Shown piece after piece: positions 1 to 28,817 of a stretch of DNA of 64,000 nt. Location: contig CAWJKM010000003.1 of the NCBI GenBank assembly GCA_963843525.1, forward strand, positions 477,033-541,032. The letters are read 5' to 3'. Numbering within the stretch: the first letter of the stretch is position 1; each line of letters starts with the position of its first letter. Made by a program: the position numbers and the translations under genes. Origin of the DNA: Ignavibacteriota bacterium (GTDB taxonomy: Bacteria > Bacteroidota > Ignavibacteria > UBA10030 > UBA6906). The notes under the pieces are model-generated. The model worked only from the letters and a program-made list of their open reading frames with translations. It was not told the origin of the DNA and did no database searches.

Positions 1-666
1 AGGGGTGGGATGGATCCCGGAAAGGTCTATATCGTCAGGAGCGGCCCCAATGTATCGAAATTCCGTCCTGTGGCTCCGTGCGCTGAGCTCAAACGGGGTT
101 TCAGCTACCTCGTCGGGTATGTCGGGGTGATGGGGAAACAGGAGGGACTTGACTACCTGCTGCGGACTGTTCACACAATCGTGCAGGAGCGGGGAAGGAA
201 AGATGTTCTGTTTGTCCTGATTGGCAGCGGGACGGAATTCAGTTCCCTTCAGACCTACGCAAAGGATCTTGGCGTTGCAGACTATGTGCAATTCACCGGT
301 CGAATCTCGGACGCGGAACTGCTCTCCTATCTTTCGACTGCGGAGGTGTGTGTGAACCCCGATGTCGCGACAGAGATGAACGATAAGTCCACCATGAACA
401 AGATCATGGAATACATGGCGCTGGGAAAACCGATTGTGCAGTTTGATCTGACGGAAGGCCGGCGCTCGGCCGATGAGGCTTCGCTCTACGCCGATCGGAA
501 TGATCCTGTGGATTTTGCAGAAAAAATCCTCGAGCTTCTCGCCGATCCGACACGTCGCGCGCACATGGGCCAAATAGGAAAAGAGCGCGTGGAAAACGAG
601 CTGGCCTGGGAATACTCAGCCAAAGTCCTTCTGCAGTCGTACGAGAATTTATTCGCAAACTTTTAG
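1..666 (+). CDS. Glycosyltransferase family 4 (GT1-fold), C-terminal part; 5' end lies outside the window
   Basis: Open frame runs to base 1 with no stop. Translation shows a GT4 C-terminal Rossmann domain (…VLFVLIGSGTE…, …MEYMALGKPIV…). Called a GT4 fragment from motif recognition only. Confidence 0.7.
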   Translation, partial: RGGMDPGKVYIVRSGPNVSKFRPVAPCAELKRGFSYLVGYVGVMGKQEGLDYLLRTVHTIVQERGRKDVLFVLIGSGTEFSSLQTYAKDLGVADYVQFTGRISDAELLSYLSTAEVCVNPDVATEMNDKSTMNKIMEYMALGKPIVQFDLTEGRRSADEASLYADRNDPVDFAEKILELLADPTRRAHMGQIGKERVENELAWEYSAKVLLQSYENLFANF

Positions 667-1159
667 CGAAGTAACTCTCCCCCCCTTACGCTTCTGCACC
701 GGCGGCCTCTGTGACCCAAGTCACTACATTGCGATTCCCTGCGGAACGACGGAACTCGGCAGTGGAGGAATTGGTTTTTCGAGTGAACTAATTGTGCAAG
801 GACGGGGCCGAGGATAAGAAAATTGAAGAAACGTTTGTGACGTACGACACCGTTTTTCCCGGGCTGATGCGTATATTATGTGAGCGTCTAGTGAAAGCCT
901 TCCCCGGGACAGGGCACTCCACCTCCGTCCATTTCAAAGTCCCGGAGGCTTCGACCGCACAGGGGTTCTTCTGCGGGCCTGGATTCGATCGAAAGAAGAA
1001 ATTCAATATCCCGGCTGTTCAGCCGGCACTGCAATCAAAGACTGAAGTTGTTTCTATTTTCGATTAGTGGTATCTTGGGGCGATTCCGAACCTTCTTTCT
1101 CGGATCGGTCGTCCGGCGGTGTTCATGAAGTTCTTTGCGATGCCTGGGGGTACGCAGAC

Positions 1160-2623
1160 ATGAGATCTCTCAAGAAATATCCACCGTACGCATCTATTCT
1201 GCCTGTCCTTGACGGACTCACGATCATGGCATGTTTGATATTTGCCATCATCCTGAGAGGTCGATCCTTCGCGGGCGAATTCACCTTTATTGGCGAGCCT
1301 CTCGACGGCGAGAAAATATTCCTGTTCTTCTTCGCCGCGTGCAGCACCTTCATTTTCCATTATTTTAATCTCTACAAGATCAACGTTATTGTGAGCGTTG
1401 CCGATCAAACCATCCGGATCGTCAAAGCATTGTCCTTTGTTGTTCTCGCCATTGCGATCCTCTCGTTTTTCACGCGCGCATCGTTCATTGTTGATAGTCG
1501 TCTCGCAATCCTGTATTTCACTGCATCGTCGTTTTCGATGATGCTTGTCGGCCGCGTCGTGATCTTCCGCACGGTTCTGCTTTTCCTCACTCGAACGCGC
1601 CTGTTCAAGCGGTCCGTGCTGGTCGTAGGCGCCGGGACGAGCGGCAGGAACCTGGTTGCCAATATCGACGTCCACGACTACCTCGGCCTCTCCGTGGTCG
1701 GCTTTCTGGATGATCAACTTTCGCCGGGAACGGTCGTCTATGATGGCGCGAAAGTCATCGGGTCCGTGTCAGAGCTGCGACAGATCGTCGAGATCTTTGA
1801 TGTCGATGAGATCCTGATCTGCCTGGAAAACGTCTCACAGGCGAGACTGTTCGAAGTGATGGAGGAGAGCATTAAGACCGAACGCAGTGTGAAGATCTCC
1901 TCTCCGCTCTACGATGTCGTCCCTTCGCGGCTGGACATGGAGAAGTACGGCGAAGTGGCTGTCGTCGCAGTGTCGCGGTTCGGGCCCAGTCCGGTATTCA
2001 TTGCCTACAAGAGAATTTTTGATGCGGTGTTTGCGGTGTTCGGCCTTCTCCTTCTTCTCCCCGTTTTTGCGGCGATCGCTCTTGCGGTCAAAATCACCTC
2101 GCGGGGACCGGTGTTTTTCAGACAGGTGAGAATCGGCAAGGACGGAACTCCCTTCGACTTCTACAAATTCCGTTCCATGACGGTAGGAAGTGATTCCGAC
2201 CCCAACCGGGAGAAGAAGTATGCGGAGCTGATCAGGGGCGAGTACAAAGCGAAGGATGATTCCAGCGCGCCTCTGAAAATTATTGACGATTCCCGGGTGA
2301 CGAAAGTCGGACGATTTCTCCGCCTTACGAGTCTCGATGAGCTTCCGCAGTTGTTCAACGTGCTGAAAGGCGATATGAGTCTTGTGGGCCCCAGGCCCTG
2401 CCTGCCGTACGAATGGAAGCACTACGAAGATTGGCACAAAAAACGCCTGAGCGTGACCCCGGGTTGCACCGGCATGTGGCAGGTTGTCGGCCGGAGCAAA
2501 GTGAGCTTCCAGGATATGGTCATCCTCGATCTCTTCTACAGCCAAAGCGTGTCGTTCCATCTGGACCTCTGGCTACTTCTCAAAACCATCCCTGTCATGG
2601 TGTTTGGAAGGGGTGCGCGGTAG
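1160..2623 (+). CDS. Undecaprenyl-phosphate sugar phosphotransferase (WbaP/EpsB-like initiating phosphoglycosyltransferase)
   Basis: N-terminal TM helices, a central CoA-binding-like region and the C-terminal bacterial sugar transferase signature (…[21 protein letters not shown]…, …[14 protein letters not shown]…). Start ambiguous: the ORF opens at 1067, and the ATG at 1160 is followed immediately by a TM segment. Confidence 0.85.
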
Positions 2624-2736: not shown

Positions 2737-3510
2737 ATGAAAGTAGCGATCCTCGCTGGCGGTGTTGGCACGCGTCTGGTCGAAGAGACCGAAGTGAAGC
2801 CGAAACCCATGGTAGAAATCGGTGGTCGACCGATTCTCTGGCACATCATGCGCCACTATGCACACTACGACTTCAAGAATTTTATCATTGCGCTCGGCTA
2901 TAAAGGCGAGGTCATCAAGAAATACATGGTGGACTATGCGAACCTGAACAGCAACCTCACTGTCAACATCGGCTCGGGAAAGGTCACTTCCCATGGCGGG
3001 TTTCGACCGGACTGGACTGTGGAACTGATTGATACGGGGACCACCACCCTGACCGGGGGGAGGATCAAACGCCTCGCCCCGTACATCGGGAAGGAGACGT
3101 TCATGCTCACGTGGGGAGACGGGGTGTCCGACGTGAATCTGAATGACTTGCTCGCCTTTCACCGACGTCACGGGAAAATCGCAACCCTCACGGCTGTGAG
3201 ACCCTCTGCCCGATTTGGGCATCTGGTGTTCGAAGGCGATCAAGTCTCGCAATTTTCGGAGAAGCCGCAGACCATGGAGGGATGGATCAACGGGGCGTTC
3301 TTTGTGCTGGAACCGAAGGTGTTCGATTACATCGACGGCGACCAGACACAATGGGAGCGTGAACCCATGGAGCGACTGGCGGCCGACGGACAGCTGATGG
3401 CGTACCGTCATACATCGTTCTGGCAGTGCATGGATACATTACGCGACAAACACCTGCTGGAAGAGCTCTGGCAGGGGGGGAAAGCACCCTGGAAAATCTG
3501 GGAGGATTGA
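2737..3510 (+). CDS. rfbF: Glucose-1-phosphate cytidylyltransferase
   Basis: MKVAILAGGVGTRL…KPKPMVEIGGRPILWHIM… is the classic RfbF/DdhA N-terminus, and the protein is about 257 aa. An AGGAA-like RBS lies upstream. Confidence 0.9.
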   Translation: MKVAILAGGVGTRLVEETEVKPKPMVEIGGRPILWHIMRHYAHYDFKNFIIALGYKGEVIKKYMVDYANLNSNLTVNIGSGKVTSHGGFRPDWTVELIDTGTTTLTGGRIKRLAPYIGKETFMLTWGDGVSDVNLNDLLAFHRRHGKIATLTAVRPSARFGHLVFEGDQVSQFSEKPQTMEGWINGAFFVLEPKVFDYIDGDQTQWEREPMERLAADGQLMAYRHTSFWQCMDTLRDKHLLEELWQGGKAPWKIWED

Positions 3511-3511
3511 T

Positions 3512-4570
3512 ATGCGCGTTCTCGTCACGGGACATAGTGGATATATCGGGACGGTCATGGTCCCGATGCTTCTGGCTGAGGGACACGAGGTTGCCGGATA
3601 CGACAGCGATCTTTTCGAGAATTCGACGTTCGGTAATGGCATCGTACAGGTCCCGTCTGCGAGGAAAGATATCCGCGACGCAACGCTCGACGATGTAAAA
3701 GGCTTCGATGCGATTATCCATCTTGCCGGTCTCTCCAATGATCCCCTGGGTGACCTGAATCCAAATTTGACCTACGAGATCAACCACCTTGCGTCCGTTC
3801 GTCTCGCCACTCTTGCGAAGGAGGCCGGGGTGGCCAGATTCATCTTCTCTTCGTCCTGCAGCAATTACGGCGCAGGAGGAGAAGATCTCCTGAATGAAAA
3901 CTCCGCGTTCAACCCCGTGACCCCCTACGGCATCTCCAAGGTCAGAGTCGAACAGGACGTGGCGAAACTGGCTTCGCGGGAGTTCAGTCCGACGTTTCTG
4001 CGGAACGCCACCGCCTTCGGTGTTTCTCCGCGCCTGAGGTTCGATCTGGTGCTCAACAATCTGGTTGCCTGGGCTTTCACGACGGGAAAAGTCTTCATCA
4101 AAAGCGATGGAACACCGTGGCGGCCGATCGTCCACATCGCGGATATTTCCAGGGCCTTCATCGCTGTTCTCACGGCACCGCGGGACGTGGTGCATAACGC
4201 CGCCTTCAACGTTGCAAGGAACGAGGACAACTATCGCATCCGCGAGCTGGCCGACATTGTGAAAGAGACGGTCCCCAACTGTACGATCGAATACGCCAAA
4301 GACGCTGGTCCGGACAAACGATGCTATCGTGTGGATAGCAGCAAGATACTTCGCACTCTCCCGTCGTTCAAGCCTGTCTGGAACGCCCGCAAAGGCGCCC
4401 AGGAACTGCATGAAGCGTACAAGCGCATCGGGCTCAAACTGGAGGACTTTGAGGGGCCAAAGTACAAGAGGATTGACCATATCAAACAACTTCTGAGCTC
4501 CGGCCGGTTGAATGCAGATCTACGGTGGGCCGGGAGAGCCGCGGAAGCTACGACACAACAACGAGGCTGA
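3512..4570 (+). CDS. NAD-dependent epimerase/dehydratase family SDR (nucleotide-sugar modifying; exact reaction unresolved)
   Basis: Has the Rossmann motif [11 protein letters not shown] and a YxxxK motif (PYGISK). A GGAGGA RBS sits 6 nt upstream. It lacks the TDE triad of true 4,6-dehydratases, so it is not called ddhB. Confidence 0.75.
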
Positions 4571-4583
4571 GCAAGGAAGATCT

Positions 4584-5822
4584 ATGAGCCAGACACCACT
4601 GCCTCCCTGCCGTTCGTGCGGGAGTACAAATCTGCAACTGATTATCTCCTTCGGGAAAACACCGCTGGCGGATGCGCTTGTATGGGAGAAAGACCTCAGT
4701 AAACCGGAGATATTTGCCCAGCTCGACCTGGCGTTCTGTCCCGATTGCGCACTGGTGCAGATCACCGAATCTGTCGATCCCGAAATCCTCTTCTGCCGCG
4801 ACTATCCGTATTTCTCCTCGGTCTCCACTTCACTGCTCCGCCACTTCCGCGACAGTGCTCTGGATATCATCGAGCGGCGCCGGCTCAACTCTTCCAGCCT
4901 CGTGATCGAAGCGGCGAGTAACGACGGATACATGCTCAAGAATTTTGCGGAACGCGGGATCCCGGTGCTCGGTATTGACCCCGCCGATGGGCCCGCGAAA
5001 CTGGCGGTGGAAGCAGGGATCCCAACCCTCAACACCTTTTTCACCGAACAGCTTGCGAAGGACTTGAAACAAAAAGAAGGAAAGGCGGCAGATGTCTTCC
5101 TGGCAAACAACGTCCTCGCCCATGTTCCCGACTTGAACGGGTTCGTGAAAGGCATACGGGAACTGCTGAAGCCAACCGGGGTGGCGGTGATTGAGGCCCC
5201 GTACCTTGTGGACTTGATCAACCACTGCGAATTTGACACGATCTACCATCAACATCTCTGTTACTTCTCCGTAACGGCTCTTGACCGTTTGTTCCGACGC
5301 CATGGTCTGTTTTTGAATGATATCAAACAGACGGGTATCCATGGCGGCTCTCTCCGCTTGTTTGTTGAGCCAGTGGAAAACGTTGGCACAACCGTCAAGA
5401 ACCTGCTCAAGGAGGAAAGTACACTCGGAGTGGATACCCTGACCTATTACAAGGGGTTTGCGCACCGGGTGCAGGAAATCAAAAATGCGCTTCAAAAGAT
5501 GTTGCGAGAGCTGAAGTCGCAGGGAAAGAGCATTGTGGGGTACGGTGCTGCTGCAAAGGCAGCAACGATGCTGGCGTTTGTCGGCATCGACCGGACGCTT
5601 CTGGACTACGTCGCAGATCTCAACAAGTTTAAGCATGGCCGGTACATGGGGGGCAATCACCTCCTCATTGTCCCTCCGTCCCGCATAGGAGAAGACAAAC
5701 CCGACTATGTCTTGATACTGGCCTGGAATTTCGCCGACGAAATTATGAAGCAACTTCAGGTCTATCGAAATGCAGGGGGGAAATTCATCATACCGATCCC
5801 CGATCCTGTCATCCGGGAATAA
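4584..5822 (+). CDS. Class I SAM-dependent sugar C-methyltransferase-like protein with N-terminal zinc ribbon (TylCIII/TcaB9-like architecture)
   Basis: N-terminal CxxC…CxxC ribbon (CRSCGS…CPDCAL), a central SAM-binding region (…[13 protein letters not shown]…) and a C-methyltransferase-like C-terminal domain. Start chosen at the ATG at 4584 with an AAGGAAG RBS; the ORF track opens at 4512. Confidence 0.7.
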
Positions 5823-6534
5823 GTCTGTGGCTCTGCTGTGGCGAGCCAAAGTGAGAGAGCACCAAAAGCGACCTTACGCAGCGAGCGGTAGGAGGAAAAG
5901 GCAGCCCATCCGTCCCCTTGGCGATCGGGAACATGTTGACTGGCATTGATGTCAGCTGATATGGCACGATAGCAGGAATTCAGATCCAGAAAGCTCCGTA
6001 CTGTCGCTGACAGACGGAGTTTTCTTTTCTAACCACCCCTTTGCCTCAGGACGGGGAAGCATGGCCCCAAGAAAAACTCTGGTATCGGACTTCGCCTGTG
6101 ACGATGATCACACAACGTTTCTTTTCGGAACACGAATGGCTATATTGGAAGTCAATCGCTCAGAAGCGCCGTCCTTTTGTGGAAAACCGTGTGTCCCTGG
6201 ATCGGCGTTTTTGTGATTTCGGGCACAGCGAGACTGGGCCGTTTTGCGCTCTATGGTACGGGTTGAAGAAATCGAACGCTGACTTAGAGGAGCAGAAACC
6301 GCAGTTCAGACATCGTGGCGTGAACCGGCGAGGCTGTCCGTCATGCCGCATTGTCGGGGGGGGGAGCACCCGTTATCGCCAATGCGGGCCCTCTTCGGGC
6401 TGGAGGGGGGCGCAAACCGAGTCCTGCAGCCTTCCTGCGTTCACCCGGCCGTTCGTCGGGTCGACGGAAAATTACTGAAGCTCTCTGTACCATGACAAAC
6501 GGATCGCGGTAGGACTGCAGGTGCCAAACCTTGT

Positions 6535-7449
6535 ATGAACCCACTTCCTGTTGTATCGATTGGTGTACCGCTGTACAATGCGGAAAATTTCGTCGAACAG
6601 GCGCTTGATTCCCTGATCGGTCAGACCTGGACCGACCTCGAAATCATTATTTCTGACAACGCTTCGACCGACCGAACGGAAGAAATCTGTCGCCGATATG
6701 CTGCCTCGGATCAAAGGATCCGGTATTATCGAAATGACGTCAACGTGGGGGCAGGCAGGAACTACAACCGCGTATTTGAACTCTCGCGTGGGAAGTTTTT
6801 TAAATGGGCTGCCCATGACGACGTTTGTGCCCCTGAATTCGTTGAACGCTGCCTCAAGGTTCTTGAGGAACGCCCGGATGTGGTGCTCGCCTTCCCTCGC
6901 ATGGTGGATATCGATGAAAAGGGGACGCCCATTGAGGGCAAACCGATCAGTGATATGCCGCGGGGAGAGCGGGGTTCCTCTCCGGTTGCCCACACAAGGT
7001 TTCGGTATCTCGTACGACTCGGGTATACCTGCGAAGAAGTCTTCGGCGTCATCCGGAGCGATGTGCTGAGAAAAACACGACTGATTCAGAGTTACACCGA
7101 CTCTGATCGAACGCTCCTTGCCGAACTCTCTCTCCATGGCCGACTGGAAGAGATTCCGGAACAGTTGTTCTACCACCGGGTCCACAAAGGAATGTCGACT
7201 CAGGCGTTTACCGATTGGCAGAGCAGAACGGCGTGGTTTGATCCGACAAAAGCAGGGAAAGTCGTTTTCCCTCTTTGGCGACAGTACAGGGAGTATCTTG
7301 CTGCCATTGTGCGTTCACCCGCGGCGCTCAAGGACAAATTGTATTGTTTTTTGTATATGGCAAATTGGCTGCGGAGACATAATGGGCACCTCCGCATCGA
7401 GATACAAAAGGGTTTCCAGCTTATGATGCATCGCGGAGCACTTTCGTAA
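6535..7449 (+). CDS. Glycosyltransferase family 2
   Basis: GT2 N-terminal motifs VSIGVPLYNAENFVEQALDSL…IIISDNASTD…, and a DxD-like HDD. Confidence 0.8.
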   Translation: MNPLPVVSIGVPLYNAENFVEQALDSLIGQTWTDLEIIISDNASTDRTEEICRRYAASDQRIRYYRNDVNVGAGRNYNRVFELSRGKFFKWAAHDDVCAPEFVERCLKVLEERPDVVLAFPRMVDIDEKGTPIEGKPISDMPRGERGSSPVAHTRFRYLVRLGYTCEEVFGVIRSDVLRKTRLIQSYTDSDRTLLAELSLHGRLEEIPEQLFYHRVHKGMSTQAFTDWQSRTAWFDPTKAGKVVFPLWRQYREYLAAIVRSPAALKDKLYCFLYMANWLRRHNGHLRIEIQKGFQLMMHRGALS

Positions 7450-7471
7450 TATCTTTCTCCGGCATTACACC

Positions 7472-8389
7472 ATGATTCCCATCAGCGCAGTTATTCCGAC
7501 GTATAACAGGGGGCCACTGCTCGCCCGGGCGATTGAAAGTGTCCTCTCGCAAACCTATGCTGCGCGAGAAGTGATTGTGATTGATGACGGCTCGAAAGAC
7601 GACTCGGCTGCCCAGGTGGCAAAATTCGGTTCGCGGGTACGATATATCCGGCAGGAAAACGCCGGTGCCTCCGAAGCGCGAAATCACGGTGTACAATCGG
7701 CTACGACTGAGTGGATCGCGTTCCTGGACTCCGACGATATCTGGGTGAATACTCACCTCGAACGCATGGCTGCTGCGATTACCGCGACAGCGGGCCGGGC
7801 ACCGGTGTACTTCTCAGATATGGAACAGACAACAGAGGATGGCGGGGGAAGCCTTTGGGATTCGATCGGTTTTCACATTCATCCGCCCCACGAGCTGGTC
7901 GACGATGCCTCTGCCTGGGTGATGATGGATCGTCAGCCGACGATGCTCCAGTGCAGCGTGTTCCGGAAATCCCGTTACCTTGAAACCGGCGGGCTTTGGA
8001 AACAACTCTGGCTTACTCATGATACACATCTGTTTCTGAAACTCTGCCTCGGGGGACCGGCGTGTGCCGTGGCTGGCTTTGGAACCATCCAGACTTCCGA
8101 CGATGCAGCCCAGGGCACGCGGTTGACGCAAACTCATGGAAGTAAGACAAGAGCATACTGGGTGGAGTCTTCGATCCTCTGGGACGACGTGATGAATCAT
8201 GCGGCGAGTAATGCGCCTGACTGGACAGCGATTGCACGTTATCGATCCTCGAACGCACGATGGCGTATTGCAAGGCATGACCTCGCGCACGGGAAGGTGT
8301 TTGCTGGCATATGGTCGGCAGTCAAGGCTGTCACCATCCAACCATCGTTGCCCGTGGTTCTTGCCCGCAGAGCCTGGTCTCGTCAATGA
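7472..8389 (+). CDS. Glycosyltransferase family 2
   Basis: ISAVIPTYNRGPLLARAIESVLSQTY…VIVIDDGSKDDS… and a DSDD motif. Confidence 0.8.
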   Translation: MIPISAVIPTYNRGPLLARAIESVLSQTYAAREVIVIDDGSKDDSAAQVAKFGSRVRYIRQENAGASEARNHGVQSATTEWIAFLDSDDIWVNTHLERMAAAITATAGRAPVYFSDMEQTTEDGGGSLWDSIGFHIHPPHELVDDASAWVMMDRQPTMLQCSVFRKSRYLETGGLWKQLWLTHDTHLFLKLCLGGPACAVAGFGTIQTSDDAAQGTRLTQTHGSKTRAYWVESSILWDDVMNHAASNAPDWTAIARYRSSNARWRIARHDLAHGKVFAGIWSAVKAVTIQPSLPVVLARRAWSRQ

Positions 8390-8534
8390 TCGGTCTTCCC
8401 GAGTTACGCTGAACCCAACAGGGAATTGTCTTACAACGGCTGCGACCTGCGCCGACACGATTTTCTCCACACCAAGACAGACGGAGTATTTTATCAGCGA
8501 TCTGAAGACACGGACGTTTAAGGGGAGTATCGTC

Positions 8535-9974
8535 ATGGGGGGAGCGACCATCGCGCTCCGGGTCCTCTCGATCGTCTCCGGTGTCATCCTGGCAAGATTG
8601 CTCAATCCCCAGGATTTTGGCATTGTTGCGTTAGCCGGAGTGGTTTTGTCGACGACCAGCCTGTTTTCCGGCTTGGGTATGAATATGGCTGTGGTTCAGA
8701 GCCGGCTGGAGCGAGGGAGTGTTGCCTTTCATGGGTTTGTTATCAGTTCGATTTCAGGGATTGTTCTTTTTCTTCTGGTTCTCGCAGGAGCGGACTTTTT
8801 CGCGCACTTTCTCGGGAGCCCATCGGTAGTGCCGGTTCTCCGGTGGATGTCGTTGCTCGTCCTGCTCGGGTCCATGGCTACGGTGCCGGAAGGTCTTCTG
8901 CAAAAGGATATGTTGTTTGGCCGGCAGAGCATTGCTGTGGTCGCCTCGGATATTGTCAATATCGGACTTTCCGTGGGGCTTGCTGTCGCCGGGTTTGGAC
9001 TTTGGAGCCTGGTCTTCGGCCCGCTTGCCAAAGGGGTCGTCTACGTCGCGCTTGTATGGATTCTTGCACCTGGTTGGGATTGGCTGCGACCCAGGCCGTG
9101 GGATAGGAAACTGACGAAAAGCATGCTCTCCTTTGGCTCACAGACCACCGGGGGCGGACTCGTTTCGTTCTTCTATTCGATAATCGACAACCTCCTTGTC
9201 GGGAGAATCCTGGGGACCGTGGCCCTCGGGTTATATGCCAAAGCGTACGATTTCAGTCTTCGGACGGTCGACGGCATTATCAACTTCATCGGGGTCGTCT
9301 TGTTCCCATCGTATGCACAAATTCAGGAAGATAAAGATCGACTGGCCCGGGCCTATTTGAAGAGCCTTCGTTTTCTCTCGTTCTTCACGGTTCCCATTGC
9401 CCTCGGGATGTTTGCGACAGCTCCCGAGATGATCGCAAAGCTCCTCGGTGAAAAATGGATCCCGATGATTGTCCCGTTTCAAGTGCTGACATTCGTCGGC
9501 GTGGTGAAACCGCTGTCAGGAACGACCGGGGCACTCTTTGCCTCCACCGGTCATCCGTCGTTTAACCTCCGCGCCGGTATTATCATTACGTTGGTCCTGG
9601 TCCCGCTTATCCTTCTGTTTCTTCACCTGGGTTTCGGGATCGTCGGAGTTGCCGCGGCCGTCGTCATCTCCCATGTCGTTGGTTTCGGTGTGAACATGGT
9701 TCAACTTCGATATCTGTTGCCGGGGAAGTCGAAGGACATGGTCGTCGCGCTTATCCCGGCCCTGCTCTGCGGTGGTGCGATGGTTGCGGCGGTATTTCTG
9801 GTCAAGCAGCCGCTCCTGGCCTGGGCCGGCGGGCGGCCAACGATCGGCACTCTGGTCTCCATGGTCGCGGTCGGAGCTGTTGTCTATGGTTCGCTCCTCT
9901 TGTTGATCCAGCGGCCACTTGTTACCGAGGTCGCTGGCATCGCATTCAAAAGGTTCCGGTCGCAGGAAGTATGA
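8535..9974 (+). CDS. Wzx-type oligosaccharide flippase (polysaccharide biosynthesis protein, MOP superfamily)
   Basis: Polytopic membrane protein with the typical N-terminus …ALRVLSIVSGVILARLLNPQDFGIVAL…. Internal ATG at 8535 is chosen because it has an AAGGGGAG RBS; the ORF track's 8199 start overlaps the upstream GT2. Confidence 0.75.
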   Translation: MGGATIALRVLSIVSGVILARLLNPQDFGIVALAGVVLSTTSLFSGLGMNMAVVQSRLERGSVAFHGFVISSISGIVLFLLVLAGADFFAHFLGSPSVVPVLRWMSLLVLLGSMATVPEGLLQKDMLFGRQSIAVVASDIVNIGLSVGLAVAGFGLWSLVFGPLAKGVVYVALVWILAPGWDWLRPRPWDRKLTKSMLSFGSQTTGGGLVSFFYSIIDNLLVGRILGTVALGLYAKAYDFSLRTVDGIINFIGVVLFPSYAQIQEDKDRLARAYLKSLRFLSFFTVPIALGMFATAPEMIAKLLGEKWIPMIVPFQVLTFVGVVKPLSGTTGALFASTGHPSFNLRAGIIITLVLVPLILLFLHLGFGIVGVAAAVVISHVVGFGVNMVQLRYLLPGKSKDMVVALIPALLCGGAMVAAVFLVKQPLLAWAGGRPTIGTLVSMVAVGAVVYGSLLLLIQRPLVTEVAGIAFKRFRSQEV

Positions 9975-10035
9975 GTTCAATCCAATCGATGCACAGGCGT
10001 TCTTAGCAAAACGAACTTATTGAGAGGAGTTCACC

Positions 10036-11256
10036 GTGGAACAGAAGCGCCAAGACAGTTGTCCGGCCTGTGGCCATGCGGCAATGCAGATTTTCTATGA
10101 TATCAATCAGGTGCCGGTCCACAGCGTATTGCTCATGGAGACCAGGGAACAGGCGCTCACGTATCCGAAGAGGGATATCAAGCTCGGGTTCTGTCCTTCG
10201 TGCGGGTTCATCTCGAACGTTGTGTTCGACCCTACTGTCCATGAGTATTCCTCGAAGTACGAAGAAACACAGGGCTTCTCCACCACCTTCCAGGATTTTC
10301 ACCACGGACTTGCGCAACGGCTGGTAGATCGCTATGACCTGCACGGAAAAGCCCTGATCGAAATAGGGTGCGGCAAAGGCGAGTTTCTCACGATGCTCTG
10401 TGAAATGGGGAACAATACGGGCGTGGGATTCGATCCGGCATATGTGAGTGAGCGGAATACCAGCCCGGCGCGAGACCGTATCAAGTTCATTAAAGATCTG
10501 TATTCGGAAAAATATACTTCGTATCACGGCGATTTCCTCTGCTGCAAGATGACGCTTGAACATATCCACCAGGTAGCGGACTTCATGAGCACCGTGCGCC
10601 GGTCAATCGGGGATCGTCGTGAAACTGTGGTGTTTTTCCAGATCCCGGAGATGAGCCGGATCCTCCATGAATGCGCGTTCTGGGATATTTATTACGAGCA
10701 CTGCTCCTATTTCACGCAAGGGTCGTTGGCCAGGCTCTTCAGGAAGACGGGATTTGATGTCGTGGATCTCGGAACCGAATACGACGGTCAATACCTGACC
10801 ATCGAAGCGAGACCGGGTACCGGTCATGGCACACCGTTGCTCCCCAAGGAAAATGATCTCAGCGCGACAGCGGAATCGGTGCGCGAATTCACCGCGTCCA
10901 TCAAGCGGACCCTTGACGGCTGGCAGGACCGGTTGCGCGAATACAAACGAGAAAACAAACGCGTCGTCATCTGGGGCGGTGGCTCAAAGGGCGTCGCTTT
11001 CCTGACGAAGTTGGATATCCGGGACCAGATCCAGTATGCCGTCGATGTCAATCCTTACAAGAAGGGGACGTTTATGGCGGGAACAGGGCAGGAGATTGTC
11101 CTTCCTGACTTTTTGACTACCTATCGGCCGGATGTGGTGATCGTCATGAATCCCATCTATGTGACGGAAATCGGGCAGGATCTCCTCAAACTGGGGCTTT
11201 CTCCAACGGTGATTCCGATTGTCGAAGATGGGCAAGTTCATGGAGGGAAAACGTGA
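10036..11256 (+). CDS. Zinc-ribbon SAM-dependent C-methyltransferase-like protein (paralog 2)
   Basis: CPACGH…CPSCGF ribbon, methyltransferase core (…LIEIGCGKGEF…) and C-methyltransferase-like C-terminal domain. Same architecture as the 4584 gene. GTG start preceded by a GAGGAG RBS. Confidence 0.7.
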   Translation: MEQKRQDSCPACGHAAMQIFYDINQVPVHSVLLMETREQALTYPKRDIKLGFCPSCGFISNVVFDPTVHEYSSKYEETQGFSTTFQDFHHGLAQRLVDRYDLHGKALIEIGCGKGEFLTMLCEMGNNTGVGFDPAYVSERNTSPARDRIKFIKDLYSEKYTSYHGDFLCCKMTLEHIHQVADFMSTVRRSIGDRRETVVFFQIPEMSRILHECAFWDIYYEHCSYFTQGSLARLFRKTGFDVVDLGTEYDGQYLTIEARPGTGHGTPLLPKENDLSATAESVREFTASIKRTLDGWQDRLREYKRENKRVVIWGGGSKGVAFLTKLDIRDQIQYAVDVNPYKKGTFMAGTGQEIVLPDFLTTYRPDVVIVMNPIYVTEIGQDLLKLGLSPTVIPIVEDGQVHGGKT

Positions 11257-12443
11257 TGGCCGCTGCGAACCCGCAAGCAATGTCCTGTCCTGTATGCGGC
11301 ACCGGACCGTTGAAGGAATTTATGAGTCTCACAGGTGTGCCGGTGCACTGCAATGTCCTGTGGCAGACGGCAGAGAAGGCCCTGGCTGCTCCCCGCGGCG
11401 ACCTCAGATTGGGGTTCTGTTCTTCGTGCGGCCATGTCTACAACATGGCGTTCGACCCCGCTTTGATGGAGTATACGCAGTCCTATGAGAATTCGCTGCA
11501 TTTCTCCCCGCGTTTCCAGGCCTATGCGAAAGCGCTGGCCGACCGGCTCATATCGACGTACGCGATTACGGGGAAGGACGTGATCGACATCGGCTGTGGC
11601 AAAGGAGATTTCCTCGCCATGCTCTGTCTGCAGGGGGAAAACAGGGGAGTGGGTTTCGACCCAAGCTATGTGCCGGAATATATGGAGGCGAATGCCGCCG
11701 CAAGAATGGAAATTGTGCGTGATTTCTATTCTCCGCGCTATACGAAATATTCCGCCGATCTTCTCACATGCAGGCATGTGCTTGAGCACATCCAGGCACC
11801 GCGCGATTTCGTCCGGAATGTCCGGGACGCTGTGGGTGACCGCACACAGAGTATTGTGTTTTTCGAGGTTCCCAATGTCCTCTATACGCTCCGCGATCTC
11901 GGGATCTGGGATCTCATCTATGAGCACTGCTCCTACTTCTCACGCTGGTCTCTGGCCAGGGTCTTTTCGGAGGAACGGTTCCAGGTGATCGCCGAGGAAG
12001 AGCTTTACGAGAGCCAGTTCCTGGGCATCGATCTCAAACCCGTGCCGGAAACCCGGAGACCGTCATCCCCCGTGCAACTCGGATCGATGCCGGAGGAAGT
12101 GAATTCATTTGCCAGGCATTACCAGCAGAAAGTGCAACACTGGCAGAAGGTGTTTTCACAGTTGAAAGAAAAAGGGAAACGGGCGGCGGTGTGGGGCGGG
12201 GGGTCAAAAGGGACGATGTTCCTGAACACGCTCAAACCCGGGGAGTCCGTCGCGTGTATGGTAGATATCAACCCGCGAAAGCAGGGGATGTTCGTTGCGG
12301 GAACAGGGTATCCCGTCGTGGGTCCTGATCGACTTGCGGGTATGGACCTGGACACGATTATCGTGATGAATCCGATTTACCGGGAGGAGATCATGACCCA
12401 GGTCGACCAGTTGGGAATTTCAGTCAATATCATGGTCGCTTGA
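11256..12443 (+). CDS. Zinc-ribbon SAM-dependent C-methyltransferase-like protein (paralog 3)
   Basis: CPVCGT…CSSCGH ribbon and …VIDIGCGKGDF… core, clearly paralogous to the preceding gene. Its start overlaps the upstream stop (GTGATGG). Confidence 0.7.
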   Translation: MAAANPQAMSCPVCGTGPLKEFMSLTGVPVHCNVLWQTAEKALAAPRGDLRLGFCSSCGHVYNMAFDPALMEYTQSYENSLHFSPRFQAYAKALADRLISTYAITGKDVIDIGCGKGDFLAMLCLQGENRGVGFDPSYVPEYMEANAAARMEIVRDFYSPRYTKYSADLLTCRHVLEHIQAPRDFVRNVRDAVGDRTQSIVFFEVPNVLYTLRDLGIWDLIYEHCSYFSRWSLARVFSEERFQVIAEEELYESQFLGIDLKPVPETRRPSSPVQLGSMPEEVNSFARHYQQKVQHWQKVFSQLKEKGKRAAVWGGGSKGTMFLNTLKPGESVACMVDINPRKQGMFVAGTGYPVVGPDRLAGMDLDTIIVMNPIYREEIMTQVDQLGISVNIMVA

Positions 12444-13249
12444 TGACGAAGTTTGCCCATTTCATATTGACGGTGTTCAATGTGCGGTTAAGCCACGGCG
12501 GCGAGACTTCCCCCGACAGTGCGTGGCTCGAACATCGGTTCCGCCTGTTTGAAGAGTTCTGTTATCCCTCTGTCCGGGCGCAAACCACGAGCGATTTCAC
12601 CTGGCTGGCTTTCTTCGACACCTCCACGCCGCCGGAATACAAGGACCGGATTGCACAACTGGCAAAGTGGAAACCCTTTGTTCCCTGTTTTGTCAGCGAA
12701 GTGATGTCGGTCGAGTCGTTCGCCGGAATGAAGAAGTCACTGCTCTTCCCCCGCGTTTCACCGGGGACGACGCATTTGATTTCCACGAATCTTGACAATG
12801 ACGATGCACTTCACGCTCGATACGTCGAGACGGTGCAAAAGGAGTTCTCGGGCCAGGATTTCGAATTTGTGAACTTCACCAATGGATATGTGTTCGACAG
12901 GGAACGGGAGAGGCTGTATTTGAGAAGGCATCACTCCAATCCTTTCGCCAGTCTCCTGGAGAGGCTGGAGAACTCAAAAACCGTCTGGTGCGCCCCTCAT
13001 CCCGAATTCTCCAGGATTGGTCCGGTCCGACAGGTGGAAACGGAACCGATGTGGTTCCAGGTGGTCCATGGGCGCAACGTCAGCAACAGCACCGCCGAAG
13101 CGCGCAGAGTCTCATTGGACAGCATCGGACATGGTTTCGATGCGGTGAAGATCATTCCCCGTCGGAGGGAATCACGGTCTTCCCTGGCATTGGAAAACGT
13201 TGCCATCCGCACGCGCGCCGTTCTTTCACGGATCACGGGCCGCCAATAA
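12443..13249 (+). CDS. Putative glycosyltransferase (rhamnosyltransferase-like DUF-type fold)
   Basis: Protein of about 268 aa. N-terminus …FILTVFNVRLSHG…WLEHRFRLFEEFCYPSVRAQT…FTWLAFFD… resembles the 'putative rhamnosyl transferase' family from memory; this is not verified. Confidence 0.45.
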   Translation: MTKFAHFILTVFNVRLSHGGETSPDSAWLEHRFRLFEEFCYPSVRAQTTSDFTWLAFFDTSTPPEYKDRIAQLAKWKPFVPCFVSEVMSVESFAGMKKSLLFPRVSPGTTHLISTNLDNDDALHARYVETVQKEFSGQDFEFVNFTNGYVFDRERERLYLRRHHSNPFASLLERLENSKTVWCAPHPEFSRIGPVRQVETEPMWFQVVHGRNVSNSTAEARRVSLDSIGHGFDAVKIIPRRRESRSSLALENVAIRTRAVLSRITGRQ

Positions 13250-13312
13250 TCGATCCGCGGTCCGGTGTCCCCGGAGTCGCCAGAACGAATTCATTCCTTC
13301 GAGACCAGTTCC

Positions 13313-14404
13313 ATGCTCCGAGTGTTTGCGATCTACCCATCGTTTGATCCACTGATGAACGAGATGGCGATCGTCTGGCATCACCTTGCGGCGGTCGGTG
13401 CTGTTCACTGCACCGTCGTTGCCAAAACGCGTGATGTCCTTAAGGGGTTTTCCTCCGCTGATGGAAACGAGCTCGATGGACATCTCTCAATTCACCGGTT
13501 CACGAAAATTCAAGCTGATCAGGCGCTCCTTTCGATTGCCCGATCGGCGAACCCTGATGTCATTTTCTGTGCGGTTGCTCATAATCTCCCGGTCGCCCTG
13601 GCGGTGGCTCGCGAGATCAGAAAGCCAATCGTTCTCCACACGGAGTTTTTCCTCGACGACGGGTATCTGATCCGAAGGCGGTATCACTTCGGATCCCGGG
13701 CGATTCGACGCGTCGAGGCCAACCTGTATCGGCGATATCTTGCCGGCGCTGTGCGTTTGATCCTTTCTTCCGATCCGCAGGAATTTCGCGATGGACCTTC
13801 CCCGCGATACCCGTCCCTGCGCTATCTTCCATGGCCGTTCTTCGGCCCCGTGCTCCCCGTGGGGTATGCAGAGCGGGACAAGTCGGCCTCGACGTACATA
13901 GGGTCCCTGAGCAAAATAAAAGGAGCAGGGGATCTGGCGCTCTATTGGAGGCATGCCTTGACGGAACTGCCGGATTTCAAGCTCTCCGTCATCGGGACGC
14001 CCGTGGACGCAGTGGGTCGAGCGGCGAGGGAGGAATTTCAAGCGTTGGCGGAGGGTGGGAGGATCGAAATGGTTCTGCATTGCGACCGTGAGGAGGCTAT
14101 GGAACGCATCCGCAGGGCGCTGTTCGTTTTCTCCCCCGGAAAAACATTCGGATGGGGTCTCATTCTGGATGCGTGGGCGACCGGGACCCCGGTGATTTCC
14201 CGCTCACCGCATTTTGATCTCGTTCCAGAGCAGAATTGCCTGATCGCCCGCAGCCCGCAGGAATTCGTTGCAAGCATCAAACGTCTCCGCCAGGATCCTC
14301 TTCTGTGGAAGAGGCTGCAAATGGGCGGACTTCAGAGTCTCCGCCAACACAGTCTTGAAAATGTATCGAATCTCCTTCTCGAATCTCTCCGACTGACAGT
14401 GTGA
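13313..14404 (+). CDS. Glycosyltransferase family 4 (GT1-fold)
   Basis: C-terminal GT1 motifs (…GWGLILDAWATGTPVISRS…). ATG at 13313 preferred over the upstream GTG at 13265. Confidence 0.7.
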   Translation: MLRVFAIYPSFDPLMNEMAIVWHHLAAVGAVHCTVVAKTRDVLKGFSSADGNELDGHLSIHRFTKIQADQALLSIARSANPDVIFCAVAHNLPVALAVAREIRKPIVLHTEFFLDDGYLIRRRYHFGSRAIRRVEANLYRRYLAGAVRLILSSDPQEFRDGPSPRYPSLRYLPWPFFGPVLPVGYAERDKSASTYIGSLSKIKGAGDLALYWRHALTELPDFKLSVIGTPVDAVGRAAREEFQALAEGGRIEMVLHCDREEAMERIRRALFVFSPGKTFGWGLILDAWATGTPVISRSPHFDLVPEQNCLIARSPQEFVASIKRLRQDPLLWKRLQMGGLQSLRQHSLENVSNLLLESLRLTV

Positions 14405-14425: not shown

Positions 14426-15412
14426 TCACTTGATGACCGCCGGCCTCTCCGGCTTCACAACGGTTGCGGAGATGTGAAACTGTTCTGCTGGACGAATCCC
14501 GATGAAGATCCCCTTCGCAATATTCCAGGGGATAAGCACGCGTCGCTTTGCATAAAGCAGGACCTTTCGGGATCCTTTCCAGAGCAGAAGGAAAACCACG
14601 AAGAACCCGATCAAGGTCGCGCCCACCAACGCGGCGACAGGGAATCCAGTTGCTGCGAGAACGATGAGGAGAGCAGGAATTCCCCAGAGCCCCAATTGTT
14701 TCATGAGCTCGCCGGTTTGCAGCCGTATGATCCGCCAGCAAAGCGATGTAAACGGATAACCGCGTATCAGCTGTCCGACCCCCCTGAAGTACCGTGACTT
14801 CTCGTTCACTTCCCCGTGGTCCTGGACCTTTTCCACGTGCATTGCCATGTCGACCGGGATCTTCTCAAGCCGGTAGCCGGCGCTCCGGATTCGAAACCCG
14901 AGTTCCCGTTCTTCTTCCCCCAGCATGTAGGGATTGAAAGTCCCGGCACGTGCGAGCGCCGTCGACCGATACAGGGCCGCCCCCCCGAAGCACTCCACTT
15001 CGCCGGTGGGCGCTGTGTCCTTGCGGACGAAAGGTTCCGGTTCACCCGGCAGGGAACGATGAAGAAACCCTGCGACACCGCCGATCTTCTCATCAGTCAT
15101 CCTCTGCAATGCGGACGCTATCCACCCGGGGAGCATAATCATGTCCCCGTCAAGAAATTGGACGAAGGGTGCCGTGGCATAGGGCGATCCCGCGTACCTG
15201 CCGACACTCGGGGACAACAATGGAGACGGGTCCAATCGGACAATCGTTACCGGGTAGCGGGAAGCTATTGCCACTGTCTGGTCCGTTGATGCGGAATCGA
15301 CGAGGATGAGTTCGACCTGAAGATCTCCCCTGGTAGAGAGAATCGATTCGAGGCAAGGACCGATATTGGCACTCTCGTTCTTCGTAATAATAACGATGCT
15401 TACATCATTCAT
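14426..15412 (-). CDS. Glycosyltransferase family 2 with C-terminal transmembrane segments
   Basis: Only minus-strand gene in the first 47 kb. …VSIVIITKNESANI…LILVDSASTD…FLDGDM… followed by TM helices. The ATG at 15410-15412 gives the canonical GT2 start MNDVSIVII; the ORF track extends to 15625. Confidence 0.75.
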   Translation of the reverse strand: MNDVSIVIITKNESANIGPCLESILSTRGDLQVELILVDSASTDQTVAIASRYPVTIVRLDPSPLLSPSVGRYAGSPYATAPFVQFLDGDMIMLPGWIASALQRMTDEKIGGVAGFLHRSLPGEPEPFVRKDTAPTGEVECFGGAALYRSTALARAGTFNPYMLGEEERELGFRIRSAGYRLEKIPVDMAMHVEKVQDHGEVNEKSRYFRGVGQLIRGYPFTSLCWRIIRLQTGELMKQLGLWGIPALLIVLAATGFPVAALVGATLIGFFVVFLLLWKGSRKVLLYAKRRVLIPWNIAKGIFIGIRPAEQFHISATVVKPERPAVIK

Positions 15413-15766
15413 GAATGTCTCTGCGTTACTGATGTGTGTGCCGCACGACTCGGGCTTCTGAAGTCTCAAAGTAGCAGGGTGGCATGGAAGATGCAACCCG
15501 CGAAAGTCGTCACCGGTGAACAGAGGCGGGTGACCGAAATATCGCAACGTGGCCCCGTGCGCCCTCTTACAGGCGATCCTTTGTAGAAATCTGGAGAACA
15601 ACCATGTAGATGTTTGTGTTTCCACTGTCTACTCCTCGTTCCTTCCTGCTCTCGATCGTGGAATACAAGCCGGAATCCTTCTTTTCCGCCTTCGCTTGCT
15701 TCATGGCATAGGATGTGACCCAAAGCACACGGATTACATCAGCAACAGAAGGGGGCAGAGACTCCA

Positions 15767-18743: not shown

Positions 18744-18881
18744 GAAGGACCTTTTCATTGATTCATACCGTCTGGGAGCTCAGCTCCTGTCCCACATGTC
18801 TCCCAAATCGAACAGCAGGCTCACTAATAGGCAGAATTATCAGATTTTATGATAAACCAAAAATATATTATTCGCAAAAAC

Positions 18882-18916
18882 TATAATCACTTGCTTTTTC
18901 TCTCGAAAAATATAAT
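18882..18916 (+). promoter_or_regulatory. AT-rich putative promoter region with two TATAAT boxes upstream of the second T9SS paralog
   Basis: The 18745-18970 stretch is conspicuously AT-rich in a GC-rich genome. TATAAT occurs at 18882-18887 and at 18911-18916. No experimental support. Confidence 0.3.
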
Positions 18917-18971
18917 TTGTGTGAAGTCAAAAATGTTCTGTCCCTTTAAACCCCGATCTGTGGAATCCCCT

Positions 18972-28499: not shown

Positions 28500-28817
28500 A
28501 TGTCTACTGACGGGCCCATTATGGGTGCGGTCGGTGGCGGTCTTCTCATACATTGTGATCACCGCGGATGGTTGCGGGAAGTGCATCGGAAGGGCGAGGT
28601 CGAACAGCAGCACCTTCCGGTTATGAGTTCCATATCGAGGACAACCCCCGGGACCGCGCGGGGAACGCATGAGCATGTCGCGAAGGCCGATCCAATTTGT
28701 TCTACCGGTCCGTCGGATTCCGAATACTGTTTCCGAGACGGCCGCAAATTCTCACCTCCGAATCTCATTCGCCATGAAGGCGACTCCTCCTCACCCTACA
28801 ATCTCGACTGCCTATGA
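28500..28817 (+). pseudogene. Degraded RmlC-like cupin remnant (in-frame internal deletion of the cupin core)
   Basis: N-terminus MSTDGPIMGAVGGGLLIHCDHRGWLREV… aligns with the intact 24211 copy (…FIDDRGWLTELY…). C-terminus …NLIRHEGDSSSPYNLD aligns with …DEIRHESDPNSPFLLD. About 50 central residues are missing. It keeps the same stop/start overlap with the downstream rmlB. Confidence 0.55.

Follow-up and report, generated by a model that had tools for sequence, protein, structure and literature searches.

The window analysed here, a stretch of 64,000 nucleotides from contig CAWJKM010000003.1 of an Ignavibacteriota bacterium, carries near its left end a cassette of five genes that probably builds an undescribed, repeatedly methylated sugar of a surface polysaccharide. 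The genes code for a glucose-1-phosphate cytidylyltransferase (rfbF), an extended short-chain dehydrogenase/reductase (SDR) and three proteins, here named MT1, MT2 and MT3, with the architecture of the zinc-ribbon C-methyltransferase TcaB9. In the explanation that we favour, and hold with moderate confidence, oxidation of cytidine diphosphate (CDP)-glucose yields CDP-4-keto-glucose with no deoxygenation, and this sugar then receives up to three methyl groups and is passed on by a linked family-2 glycosyltransferase (GT2). The evidence that carries it consists of the enzyme families themselves, their intact cofactor and zinc motifs, the missing adjacent dehydratase, and the conservation of the genes and of their order.

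Gene content of the cassette

Genes of the window were called from Pfam, NCBIfam (TIGR and NF models) and PDB searches, with bit scores compared with the cutoffs of the models. The family E-values of the cassette genes range from 1e-14 to 1e-56, so that chance matches are no concern. The product of rfbF (2737..3510, plus strand), which accounts for CDP-D-glucose formation, matches the equivalog model TIGR02623 over its full length (residues 1-255 of a 255-position model) with 368 bits against a cutoff of 300.25, and orthologs of 66-93% identity lie directly upstream of the SDR gene at related loci. The SDR gene (3512..4570, plus strand; PF01370, 144 bits) starts 1 nt past the rfbF stop, and its product is proposed to be a CDP-glucose C4-dehydrogenase resembling Cj1427 of Campylobacter jejuni. 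It is followed by MT1 (4584..5822, plus strand), whose open reading frame (ORF) opens at 4512. MT2 (10036..11256) and MT3 (11256..12443, with a start at 11253 or 11256) form a tandem pair on the same strand, in which the MT2 stop and the MT3 ATG overlap in the sequence TGATG at 11254-11258. All five genes, as well as the 1-nt overlap within the pair, are where the initial annotation had placed them. Between MT1 and the pair lies GT2a (6535..7449, plus strand; PF00535, 111 bits), the candidate transferase for the modified sugar.

The three methyltransferases

All three proteins carry Methyltransf_23 (PF13489, 64-70 bits each) and Methyltransf_14 (PF08484; 189, 61 and 53 bits for MT1, MT2 and MT3, respectively, all over the cutoff of 23.5). 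The zinc domain Methyltransf_13 (PF08421) exceeds its cutoff of 31.3 in MT1 only (73 bits), with 26-28 bits for MT3 and 18 bits for MT2. The NCBIfam search of the methyltransferases gave weak, irrelevant matches only. Among solved structures, MtmC is the closest relative of each of the three: MT1 matches MtmC, KijD1 and TcaB9 with E-values of 3e-83, 9e-76 and 6e-75 at 34-38% identity, while MT2 and MT3 match the same enzymes with E-values of 5e-18 and 4e-16, at about 20% identity. The AlphaFold model (AF2) of MT2, with a predicted local distance difference test (pLDDT) score of 89.3, is matched by Foldseek over its full length to MtmC, KijD1 and TcaB9 (template modelling (TM) score 0.82-0.83, E 1e-25 to 1e-29), and the remaining PDB matches of this model cover the Rossmann core only (TM ≤ 0.36). 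The zinc-ribbon C-methyltransferase architecture therefore holds for all three proteins, as the initial annotation had proposed in naming the TcaB9/TylCIII family. By sequence they are members of the TcaB9/TylCIII superfamily of zinc-ribbon nucleoside diphosphate (NDP)-sugar C-methyltransferases, and methylation is their predicted activity; all members of the three-domain family with a solved structure methylate C3 of a 4-keto sugar.

The description of the three genes as paralogous fits MT2 and MT3, which share 41% identity, and is overstated for MT1, which is 19-22% identical to either. To judge from these identities, none of the three is a recent copy of another, and MT2 and MT3 appear as an old, fixed-order pair within an uncharacterised subfamily of the TcaB9 architecture.

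For a comparison of the active sites, 46 MT1, 78 MT2 and 43 MT3 orthologs were aligned with the solved enzymes. The four columns of the TcaB9 zinc site hold Cys in 43-46 of the 46 MT1 orthologs, in all 78 MT2 orthologs and in 39-43 of the 43 MT3 orthologs, and in all three proteins of the window too. Motif I of the S-adenosylmethionine (SAM) site is conserved across the three groups (EAASNDG in MT1, EIGCGKG in MT2 and (E/D)IGCGKG in MT3), as are the acidic Asp134 after strand 2 and a C-terminal GxGxxxK. The possibility that MT2 or MT3 had lost its zinc site or the ability to bind SAM is ruled out, since both sites are intact in the ortholog alignments. Neither a non-sugar methyltransferase family nor a missing SAM motif, which the initial annotation had listed as findings that would speak against its proposal, was found for any of the three proteins.

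The residues probed by mutation in TcaB9 (Y76, H181, Y222, E224 and H225) are taken from the titles of the PDB entries of the variants Y76F, H181N, Y222F, E224Q and H225N, with an offset of 2 that was checked by alignment; the roles of the individual residues are presumed. Y76, H181 and H225 (TcaB9 numbering) are retained in all three groups, and each group has its own fixed signature at the Tyr222-x-Glu224-His225 motif. All five residues are retained in MT2 (FWDIYYEHC). Four of the five are retained in MT1 (FDTIYHQHL), where Gln replaces Glu224 in 45 of the 46 orthologs, and four in MT3 (IWD[LI]IYEHC), where Ile replaces Tyr222. The expected agreement with the TcaB9 active site is thus complete for MT2, with one change each in MT1 and MT3, and the earlier suggestion that the copies might fall into distinct clades or be functionally distinct is borne out by these group-specific signatures.

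An Ala in place of the first Gly of motif I (E-x-A-S-N-D-G) is found in all MT1 orthologs and also in the methyltransferases of a second cassette type described below (type B), and only the MT1 group linked to CDP-glucose has Gln224 as well. As far as the alignment goes, the conserved Gln224 is specific to the MT1 of the CDP-glucose cassette.

The SDR and the source of the keto group

The SDR shows the motifs TGHSGYIG and FSSSCSNYG...YGISK, with S115, Y139 and K143, and has no Asp-Glu after the catalytic Ser. Its Asp31 is invariant across the family; an acidic residue of this kind in extended SDRs goes with NAD rather than NADP. The protein was rejected as a CDP-glucose 4,6-dehydratase (RfbG/DdhB) because it reaches 27 bits with TIGR02622, against a cutoff of 278, through its N-terminal Rossmann part only, and has SSSCSNYG in place of Thr-Asp-Glu. 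The initial annotation, which had recognised no ddhB-type dehydratase and had remarked on the missing TDE triad of the adjacent SDR, was correct on both counts. The best NCBIfam match is the GalE model TIGR01179, where the protein fails the equivalog with 100 bits against a cutoff of 262. A TyvE-type CDP-sugar 2-epimerase was also considered and rejected, as no such structure was recognised among the matches listed by the sequence, profile and fold searches.

The best PDB match of the SDR is Cj1427 (6VO6/6VO8), with 122.7 bits for the single sequence against 74.8 for the next structure, and with 153 bits against 88.4 when the family profile is used. Identity to Cj1427 is 30-32%. Foldseek with the AlphaFold model of the SDR (of moderate quality, pLDDT 73.7) places Cj1427 at ranks 1-5 (E 2e-19), with C4-epimerases close behind (E 7e-18). 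These comparisons make the C4-dehydrogenase Cj1427 the closest characterised relative by sequence, profile and fold. The next relatives in both sequence and fold are C4-epimerases (MoeE5 and the 4-epimerases of uridine diphosphate (UDP)-GlcNAc and UDP-Glc), so that C4 is the likely site of action either way. Cj1427 is a ping-pong C4-dehydrogenase of NDP-heptose (guanosine diphosphate (GDP)-heptose). It sets its 4-keto product free, and 2-ketoglutarate re-oxidises the NADH that the enzyme holds tightly, becoming L-2-hydroxyglutarate in the process (PMC10680097). An SDR of this type would offer a direct answer to the missing source of the 4-keto group.

The rank of the C4-epimerases, together with GalE as the best NCBIfam match, is also what can be said for a different assignment, in which the SDR is an ordinary epimerase that releases no intermediate (as a 4-epimerase, for example, it would turn CDP-glucose into CDP-galactose), the three methyltransferases bind the CDP-hexose through their C-terminal NDP-binding domain and methylate its hydroxyls, and the product is a di- or tri-O-methyl hexose. 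We consider this unlikely: the score of the SDR is 48-65 bits higher for Cj1427 than for any epimerase, all solved members of the methyltransferase family are C3-methyltransferases on 4-keto sugars, and the residues probed in TcaB9 are for the most part retained in all three groups.

Other sources of a keto sugar were looked for in the window. It holds three extended-SDR genes (at 3512, 26765 and 28814) and a truncated rmlB (24686-25234), none of them a CDP-glucose 4,6-dehydratase, and this survey of SDR genes disclosed no further dehydratase or reductase. The gene at 26765 codes for a TviC-like epimerase and the one at 28814 for a true deoxythymidine diphosphate (dTDP)-glucose 4,6-dehydratase (RmlB; TIGR01181, 501 bits), both within a second cluster. 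The initial annotation had suggested that the latter might supply the keto intermediate, and a classical route can be drawn from it: an NDP-4-keto-6-deoxyhexose would be provided by a 4,6-dehydratase from outside the cassette, be it rmlB at 28814 or another gene, the methyltransferases would put C-methyl groups on it, the SDR would be the final 4-ketoreductase, and a 6-deoxy branched sugar would result. All characterised family members (TcaB9, KijD1 and MtmC) work in this manner (PMC10269268), the dTDP-glucose 4,6-dehydratase of the window is intact, and an SDR adjoining methyltransferases could well be a reductase. The suggestion does not hold up against the gene context. Although genuine, this rmlB is dTDP-specific according to its model, lies 16 kb away in another cluster, and has an rmlB-like counterpart within 10 kb in just 2 of 55 related loci, leaving 53 without one; contiguous cassettes occur with no dehydratase. 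The nucleotidyltransferase of the cassette makes CDP-glucose, for which neither the window nor the surroundings of the cassette provide a 4,6-dehydratase. Moreover, the invariant Asp of the SDR is typical of NAD enzymes and not of NADPH-dependent biosynthetic reductases, and the nearest relative of the SDR is an oxidising enzyme. The classical route is for these reasons judged decidedly improbable.

Conservation of the cassette across lineages

Related loci were picked by their similarity to the proteins of the window, and they include about 22 near-duplicate Acidobacteriaceae loci. With MT2 as the query, species-representative genomes yielded at least 585 loci, of which the best 80 were kept. 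The taxon labels of these 80 loci cover Bacteroidota, Ignavibacteriota, Chloroflexota, Acidobacteriota, Verrucomicrobiota, Planctomycetota (including Brocadia and Jettenia), Clostridia, Nitrospirae, Desulfobacteraceae, Alphaproteobacteria, Gemmatimonas, candidate phyla and the archaeon Methanoperedens. The recurrent block is [GT2a]-rfbF-SDR-MT1-(0 or 1 gene)-MT2-[MT3], and it is found under at least 10 phylum-level labels despite the duplicates. Identities to the proteins of the window at the MT2 loci are 66-93% for rfbF, 62-92% for the SDR, 55-85% for MT1, 54-82% for MT2 and 39-72% for MT3.

Enough flanking sequence was available at 55 MT2-centred loci, where rfbF is present in 41, the SDR in 42, MT1 in 45, GT2a in 37, a second gene of the MT2/MT3 type in 32 and an rmlB-like gene in 2. 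The GT2a homolog adjoins rfbF in those 37 loci, as well as in many SDR-centred ones. Where genes of both the MT2 and the MT3 type are present, the MT3-type gene is downstream of the MT2-type gene without exception (41 of 41 loci). At two Bacteroidota loci the MT2-MT3 pair seemingly stands alone, and in both of them the rfbF-SDR-MT1 trio is found about 20 kb off on the same contig. A second, independent sample consisted of 80 SDR-centred metagenome loci, 30 of which have at least 5.5 kb downstream of the SDR, and a TcaB9-like methyltransferase was present at 29 of these 30. The trio occurs without MT2 (loci L137 and L087) and MT2 is seldom seen without a nearby trio, which suggests that MT2 and MT3 act after MT1.

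Contiguous rfbF-SDR-MT1-MT2-MT3 blocks are found in five lineages, among them Chloroflexota, Clostridia, Acidobacteriota and Alphaproteobacteria. Their flanks are unrelated, with genes for a sigma-54 activator, DUF362, a flippase, DUF1349, a family-4 glycosyltransferase (GT4), a pyruvyl transferase, AcnX and a release factor, and neither a dehydratase nor a reductase was found adjoining the five-gene blocks of these five lineages. The cassette therefore looks self-sufficient, with the SDR as the sole candidate for making the carbonyl.

In the archaeon Candidatus Methanoperedens sp. BLZ2 (locus L083), the MT2-MT3 pair (55% and 47% identity) is accompanied by a GT2a homolog and a flippase, and the rfbF-SDR-MT1 trio was not found within 10 kb. 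The presence of the pair in Methanoperedens suggests horizontal transfer across domains.

Two variants of the cassette were observed. Loci of the Acidobacteriaceae type (L040, L043, L051-L078 and L084) have no MT3, and about 20 of them share the order GT2a-rfbF-SDR-MT1-(2-oxoglutarate (2OG)-oxygenase-like)-MT2-LhgO-GT4-GT2-GT4. The two inserted genes (for example, 8756-9685 and 11237-12451 in L066) code for a protein like 2OG-Fe(II)-oxygenases (a weak match, 18.5 bits) between MT1 and MT2, and for LhgO, an L-2-hydroxyglutarate oxidase that matches the equivalog NF008726 with 582 bits against a cutoff of 299, after MT2. Next to a dehydrogenase of the Cj1427 type, LhgO would recycle L-2-hydroxyglutarate to 2-ketoglutarate, which is suggestive, and it would have a role neither in the O-methylation scheme nor in the other rival schemes. 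As a general component of the cassette it was rejected, being confined to one Acidobacteriaceae clade.

The second variant, type B, comes from soil metagenomes (L099, L106, L107, L116-L118, L121-L124, L139, L140, L145, L149, L159 and L166; for example, L107 10001-17802). Its order is an ortholog of the same SDR (68-73% identity), a DUF4910/DUF2172/HTH_47 protein, a 2OG-oxygenase-like protein, a TcaB9-like methyltransferase, a divergent NTP_transferase, PIG-L and GT2. The SDR ortholog, the TcaB9-like methyltransferase, the 2OG-oxygenase-like protein and the GT2 are shared with one form or another of the CDP-glucose cassette. Type B differs in the nucleotidyltransferase, which is 36-38% identical to rfbF, in the DUF4910/DUF2172/HTH_47 and PIG-L proteins and in having no MT2 or MT3. 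Its methyltransferase has the canonical YHEH, in contrast with Gln224 in the MT1 of the window. Type B resembles the NCBIfam "sporadic carbohydrate cluster", and its oxygenase weakly matches TIGR04324.

Proposed pathway

The pathway would begin with the formation of CDP-D-glucose by RfbF, a well-supported step. The NAD-binding SDR would then oxidise C4 and release CDP-4-keto-D-glucose with its 6-hydroxyl kept, as Cj1427 does with GDP-heptose; homology and gene context both point to this step, which would provide the carbonyl required by enolate-type C-methyltransferases in place of the usual 4,6-dehydratase. MT1, whose family membership is plain, would C-methylate a carbon beside the carbonyl, most likely C3, and MT2 followed by MT3 would put further methyl groups on the same CDP-linked sugar. 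Apart from C3, only C5 can be enolised; the third methylation may therefore take place on oxygen or hinge on another change in the sugar. C4 would be reduced again without a dedicated reductase, either by the NADH-loaded SDR, which would make the pathway redox-neutral, or by a methyltransferase paralog behaving like MtmC. Finally, the co-conserved GT2 would move the branched, non-deoxy methyl-hexose into the repeat unit.

Several points weigh against this pathway. Identity of the SDR to Cj1427 is just 30-32% and the C4-epimerases are structurally almost as near, so that release of the keto sugar remains a prediction. A 4-keto hexose has just two enolisable neighbours, C3 and C5, and three C-methylations cannot, therefore, all use the TcaB9 mechanism; O-methylation, a heteromeric MT2-MT3 enzyme or alternative products may account for the third. 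Three hydroxyls would explain three methylations more easily than two enolisable carbons, which favours the O-methylation scheme, as does the fact that a scheme of that kind needs no ketoreductase and is consistent with a self-contained cassette. The proposed pathway does need a final reduction, and the cassette encodes no dedicated reductase for it. MT1 departs from TcaB9, KijD1 and MtmC in two places, with Gln in place of their Glu224 and, in motif I, Ala in place of their Gly113. With regard to the comparative evidence, the choice of loci by similarity and the near-duplicates among them mean that there are fewer independent observations than the raw locus counts suggest. Most of the loci with LhgO have copies that are 90-100% identical to one another. 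These loci form one close clade and thus count as one evolutionary event, and LhgO was found neither in the window nor at the 80 SDR-centred metagenome loci.

The lack of a dedicated reductase also speaks for a refinement of the proposed pathway, not exclusive of it, in which one methyltransferase paralog (MT1 or MT3) is the C4-ketoreductase, or MT2 and MT3 are a heteromer that carries out a single methylation. MtmC switches between 3-C-methylation with SAM and 4-ketoreduction with NADPH (PMC10269268), and MT1 (Gln224) and MT3 (Ile222) each have a conserved change at a residue probed in TcaB9, with motif I of MT1 altered as well. For the heteromer, it can be said that MT2 and MT3 are always neighbours, in an order that does not vary, and that the stop codon of the first often overlaps the start codon of the second. 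Against a paralog as reductase, all three groups keep SAM motif I and the acidic residue that binds ribose, and the rfbF-SDR-MT1 trio on its own (L087, L137) would merely give the hexose back if MT1 were a reductase only. Against the heteromer, the Acidobacteriaceae loci have MT2 without MT3, hence MT2 is independent of MT3. We regard this refinement as rather improbable.

The C4-dehydrogenase pathway can be carried further, to a version in which it is shared by at least 10 phylum-level lineages and by at least one archaeon with the MT2-MT3 pair, and makes non-deoxy hexoses accessible to C-methylation. The methyl groups after the first (at C5, for example) would be due to MT2 and MT3 as a new subfamily of the TcaB9 fold, and the product would be a di- or trimethylated hexose unreported from polysaccharides. 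In this version five genes suffice, because the SDR hands back the borrowed hydride at the end. We put it forward tentatively, with our doubts somewhat outweighing our confidence.

If the proposed pathway is right, it would be a second entry to C-methyl sugar chemistry, with the 6-hydroxyl retained. Ping-pong dehydrogenases of the Cj1427 type would then extend beyond Campylobacter and supply the methyltransferases of Acidobacteriota, Chloroflexota, Bacteroidota, anammox Planctomycetota and others. Two very large and highly conserved families, whose public annotation goes no further than "class I SAM-dependent methyltransferase" and "SDR family oxidoreductase", would gain a function as well; in each of the family searches, essentially all 8000 candidates scored at E ≤ 1e-10. 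Abundant bacteria of soil and wastewater would be predicted to have an undescribed hydrophobic sugar in their exopolysaccharides.

The polysaccharide cluster and its surroundings

The cassette is hosted by a single Wzx-type surface-polysaccharide cluster in the first 15.6 kb of the window (1-15.6 kb), on the plus strand except for its last GT2 gene. The left end of the cluster is a GT4 fragment (10-666, plus strand), and the cassette-hosting part starts with an initiating phosphoglycosyl transferase (Bac_transf and CoA_binding_3; 1067..2623, plus strand; PF02397, 213 bits), which is syntenic and 87-89% identical in the related loci L005 and L006. GT2a is followed by GT2b (7472..8389, plus strand; PF00535, 116 bits), which is syntenic in the same two loci. 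The Wzx-type flippase (8520..9974, plus strand; PF13440, 237 bits) has an ORF that opens at 8199, within which the match begins at residue 130, and its start is likely near 8520; a flippase gene is upstream of the MT2-MT3 pair in L001, L002, L003, L005, L006 and L009 too. The stop of MT3 overlaps the start of the next gene in TGATG at 12441-12445. That gene codes for a glycosyltransferase of the PF11316 (Rhamno_transf-like) family (12443..13249, plus strand; 103 bits), which follows MT3 in L005 and L006 only. A GT4-like glycosyltransferase comes next (13265..14404, plus strand), a weak assignment with sub-threshold PF13692 and PF13524 matches, with syntenic counterparts of 60% identity in L005 and L006. 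GT2c (14426..15625, minus strand; PF00535, 70 bits), syntenic in L006, ends the cluster.

The gap between MT1 and the next glycosyltransferase gene (5823-6534) measures 712 bp, as compared with about 270-290 bp in L005 and L006. Its sole ORF (6041-6478, 145 aa) was considered as a member of the cassette and rejected, having no family match and no counterpart in the syntenic L005 and L006. An Rfam scan of the whole window, including this gap, gave no match.

Directly after the cluster, two genes on the plus strand (15767-18670 and 18849-22742) code for very large proteins sorted by the type IX secretion system (T9SS; Por_Secre_tail), with CBM_4_9 and GH123-N-like segments. At related Bacteroidota and Ignavibacteriota loci (L001, L002, L004, L085 and L086), T9SS proteins with DUF1349, Pel9A-like beta-helix and CBM_4_9 domains are interspersed with the same sugar genes. 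The T9SS proteins beside the cluster may be secreted enzymes acting on the same polysaccharide, or binders of it. T9SS sorting domains in several genes near the cluster, and a protein recorded under "Bacteroidota bacterium" to which MT2 is 100% identical, agree with a Bacteroidota-type genome as the source of the window.

The second, separate polysaccharide cluster (25458-47096) holds genes for an NDP-sugar dehydrogenase, the TviC-like epimerase, the lone RmlB with no adjacent rmlA, rmlC or rmlD, Wza, Wzz, Wzx, several GT4 proteins, an asparagine synthase homolog, a second Bac_transf, a DegT aminotransferase and a GT2-CoA_binding_3 fusion (45102-47096). The truncated rmlB (24686-25234, plus strand), whose product is 77.6% identical to residues 1-183 of that of the intact copy (28814-29821), lies a short way upstream of the gene at 25458, which codes for the NDP-sugar dehydrogenase. 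The fragment is probably a pseudogene, left behind by a duplication or a rearrangement that took place between polysaccharide clusters.

Comparison with known systems

C-methyl branched sugars are, to our knowledge, known almost only as the 6-deoxy sugars of actinomycete antibiotics and as a few sugars of lipopolysaccharide (LPS), in which the carbonyl always comes from a 4,6-dehydratase. The parts of the cassette belong to known families, and their combination fits no described pathway that we found. A full-text literature search returned no account of this cassette or of a CDP-glucose C4-dehydrogenase; most subscription journals are outside its coverage, so novelty is unproven. The single match for the term "CDP-4-keto-glucose" used it as a short name for the 6-deoxy compound. 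Hexoses with a C-methyl branch that are not deoxygenated, 3-C-methyl-mannose being one, are described as rare (PMC12961483).

MT1, MT2 and MT3 share with TcaB9, KijD1 and MtmC the Cys4 zinc ribbon, the class I SAM domain and the PF08484 NDP-binding domain. The substrates of those solved enzymes, dTDP-4-keto-6-deoxy (or 2,6-dideoxy) sugars, come from RmlB-type dehydratases in the antibiotic secondary metabolism of actinomycetes, whereas the cassette of the window has a CDP-glucose entry and no dehydratase, and belongs to a surface-polysaccharide cluster of environmental bacteria. A cell-surface glycan with a C-methyl branch is also the case of virenose (6-deoxy-3-C-methyl-gulose) in the LPS of Coxiella burnetii, whose proposed route reportedly depends on a 4,6-dehydratase, proceeds via a GDP-sugar and includes one methylation, by a TylCIII-type C3-methyltransferase on an NDP-4-keto sugar; unlike the cassette, the virenose route is not known to involve a Cj1427-like SDR or enzymes of the MT2/MT3 type.

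The start from a glucose-1-phosphate cytidylyltransferase and the 4-keto intermediate are shared with the rfbF-rfbG (ddhB) cassette for 3,6-dideoxyhexoses and with the CDP-6-deoxy-furanose pathway of C. jejuni HS:41 (PMC12369002). Both the classical CDP-sugar pathways and that of HS:41 use a CDP-glucose 4,6-dehydratase, a model which the SDR of the window fails. The closest parallel for the SDR is Cj1427, likewise an extended SDR with Ser/Thr-Tyr-Lys and without the acid/base pair of the dehydratases, whose 4-keto sugar keeps its other hydroxyls and is passed on to tailoring enzymes (PMC10680097). L-2-hydroxyglutarate, its by-product, fits the oxidase embedded in the Acidobacteriaceae cassette. 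The two would differ in their substrate, GDP-heptose for Cj1427 and CDP-glucose for the SDR of the window, and they differ in their partners: downstream of Cj1427 these are epimerases and separate NADPH-dependent C4-reductases, while here they are C-methyltransferases, with no separate reductase.

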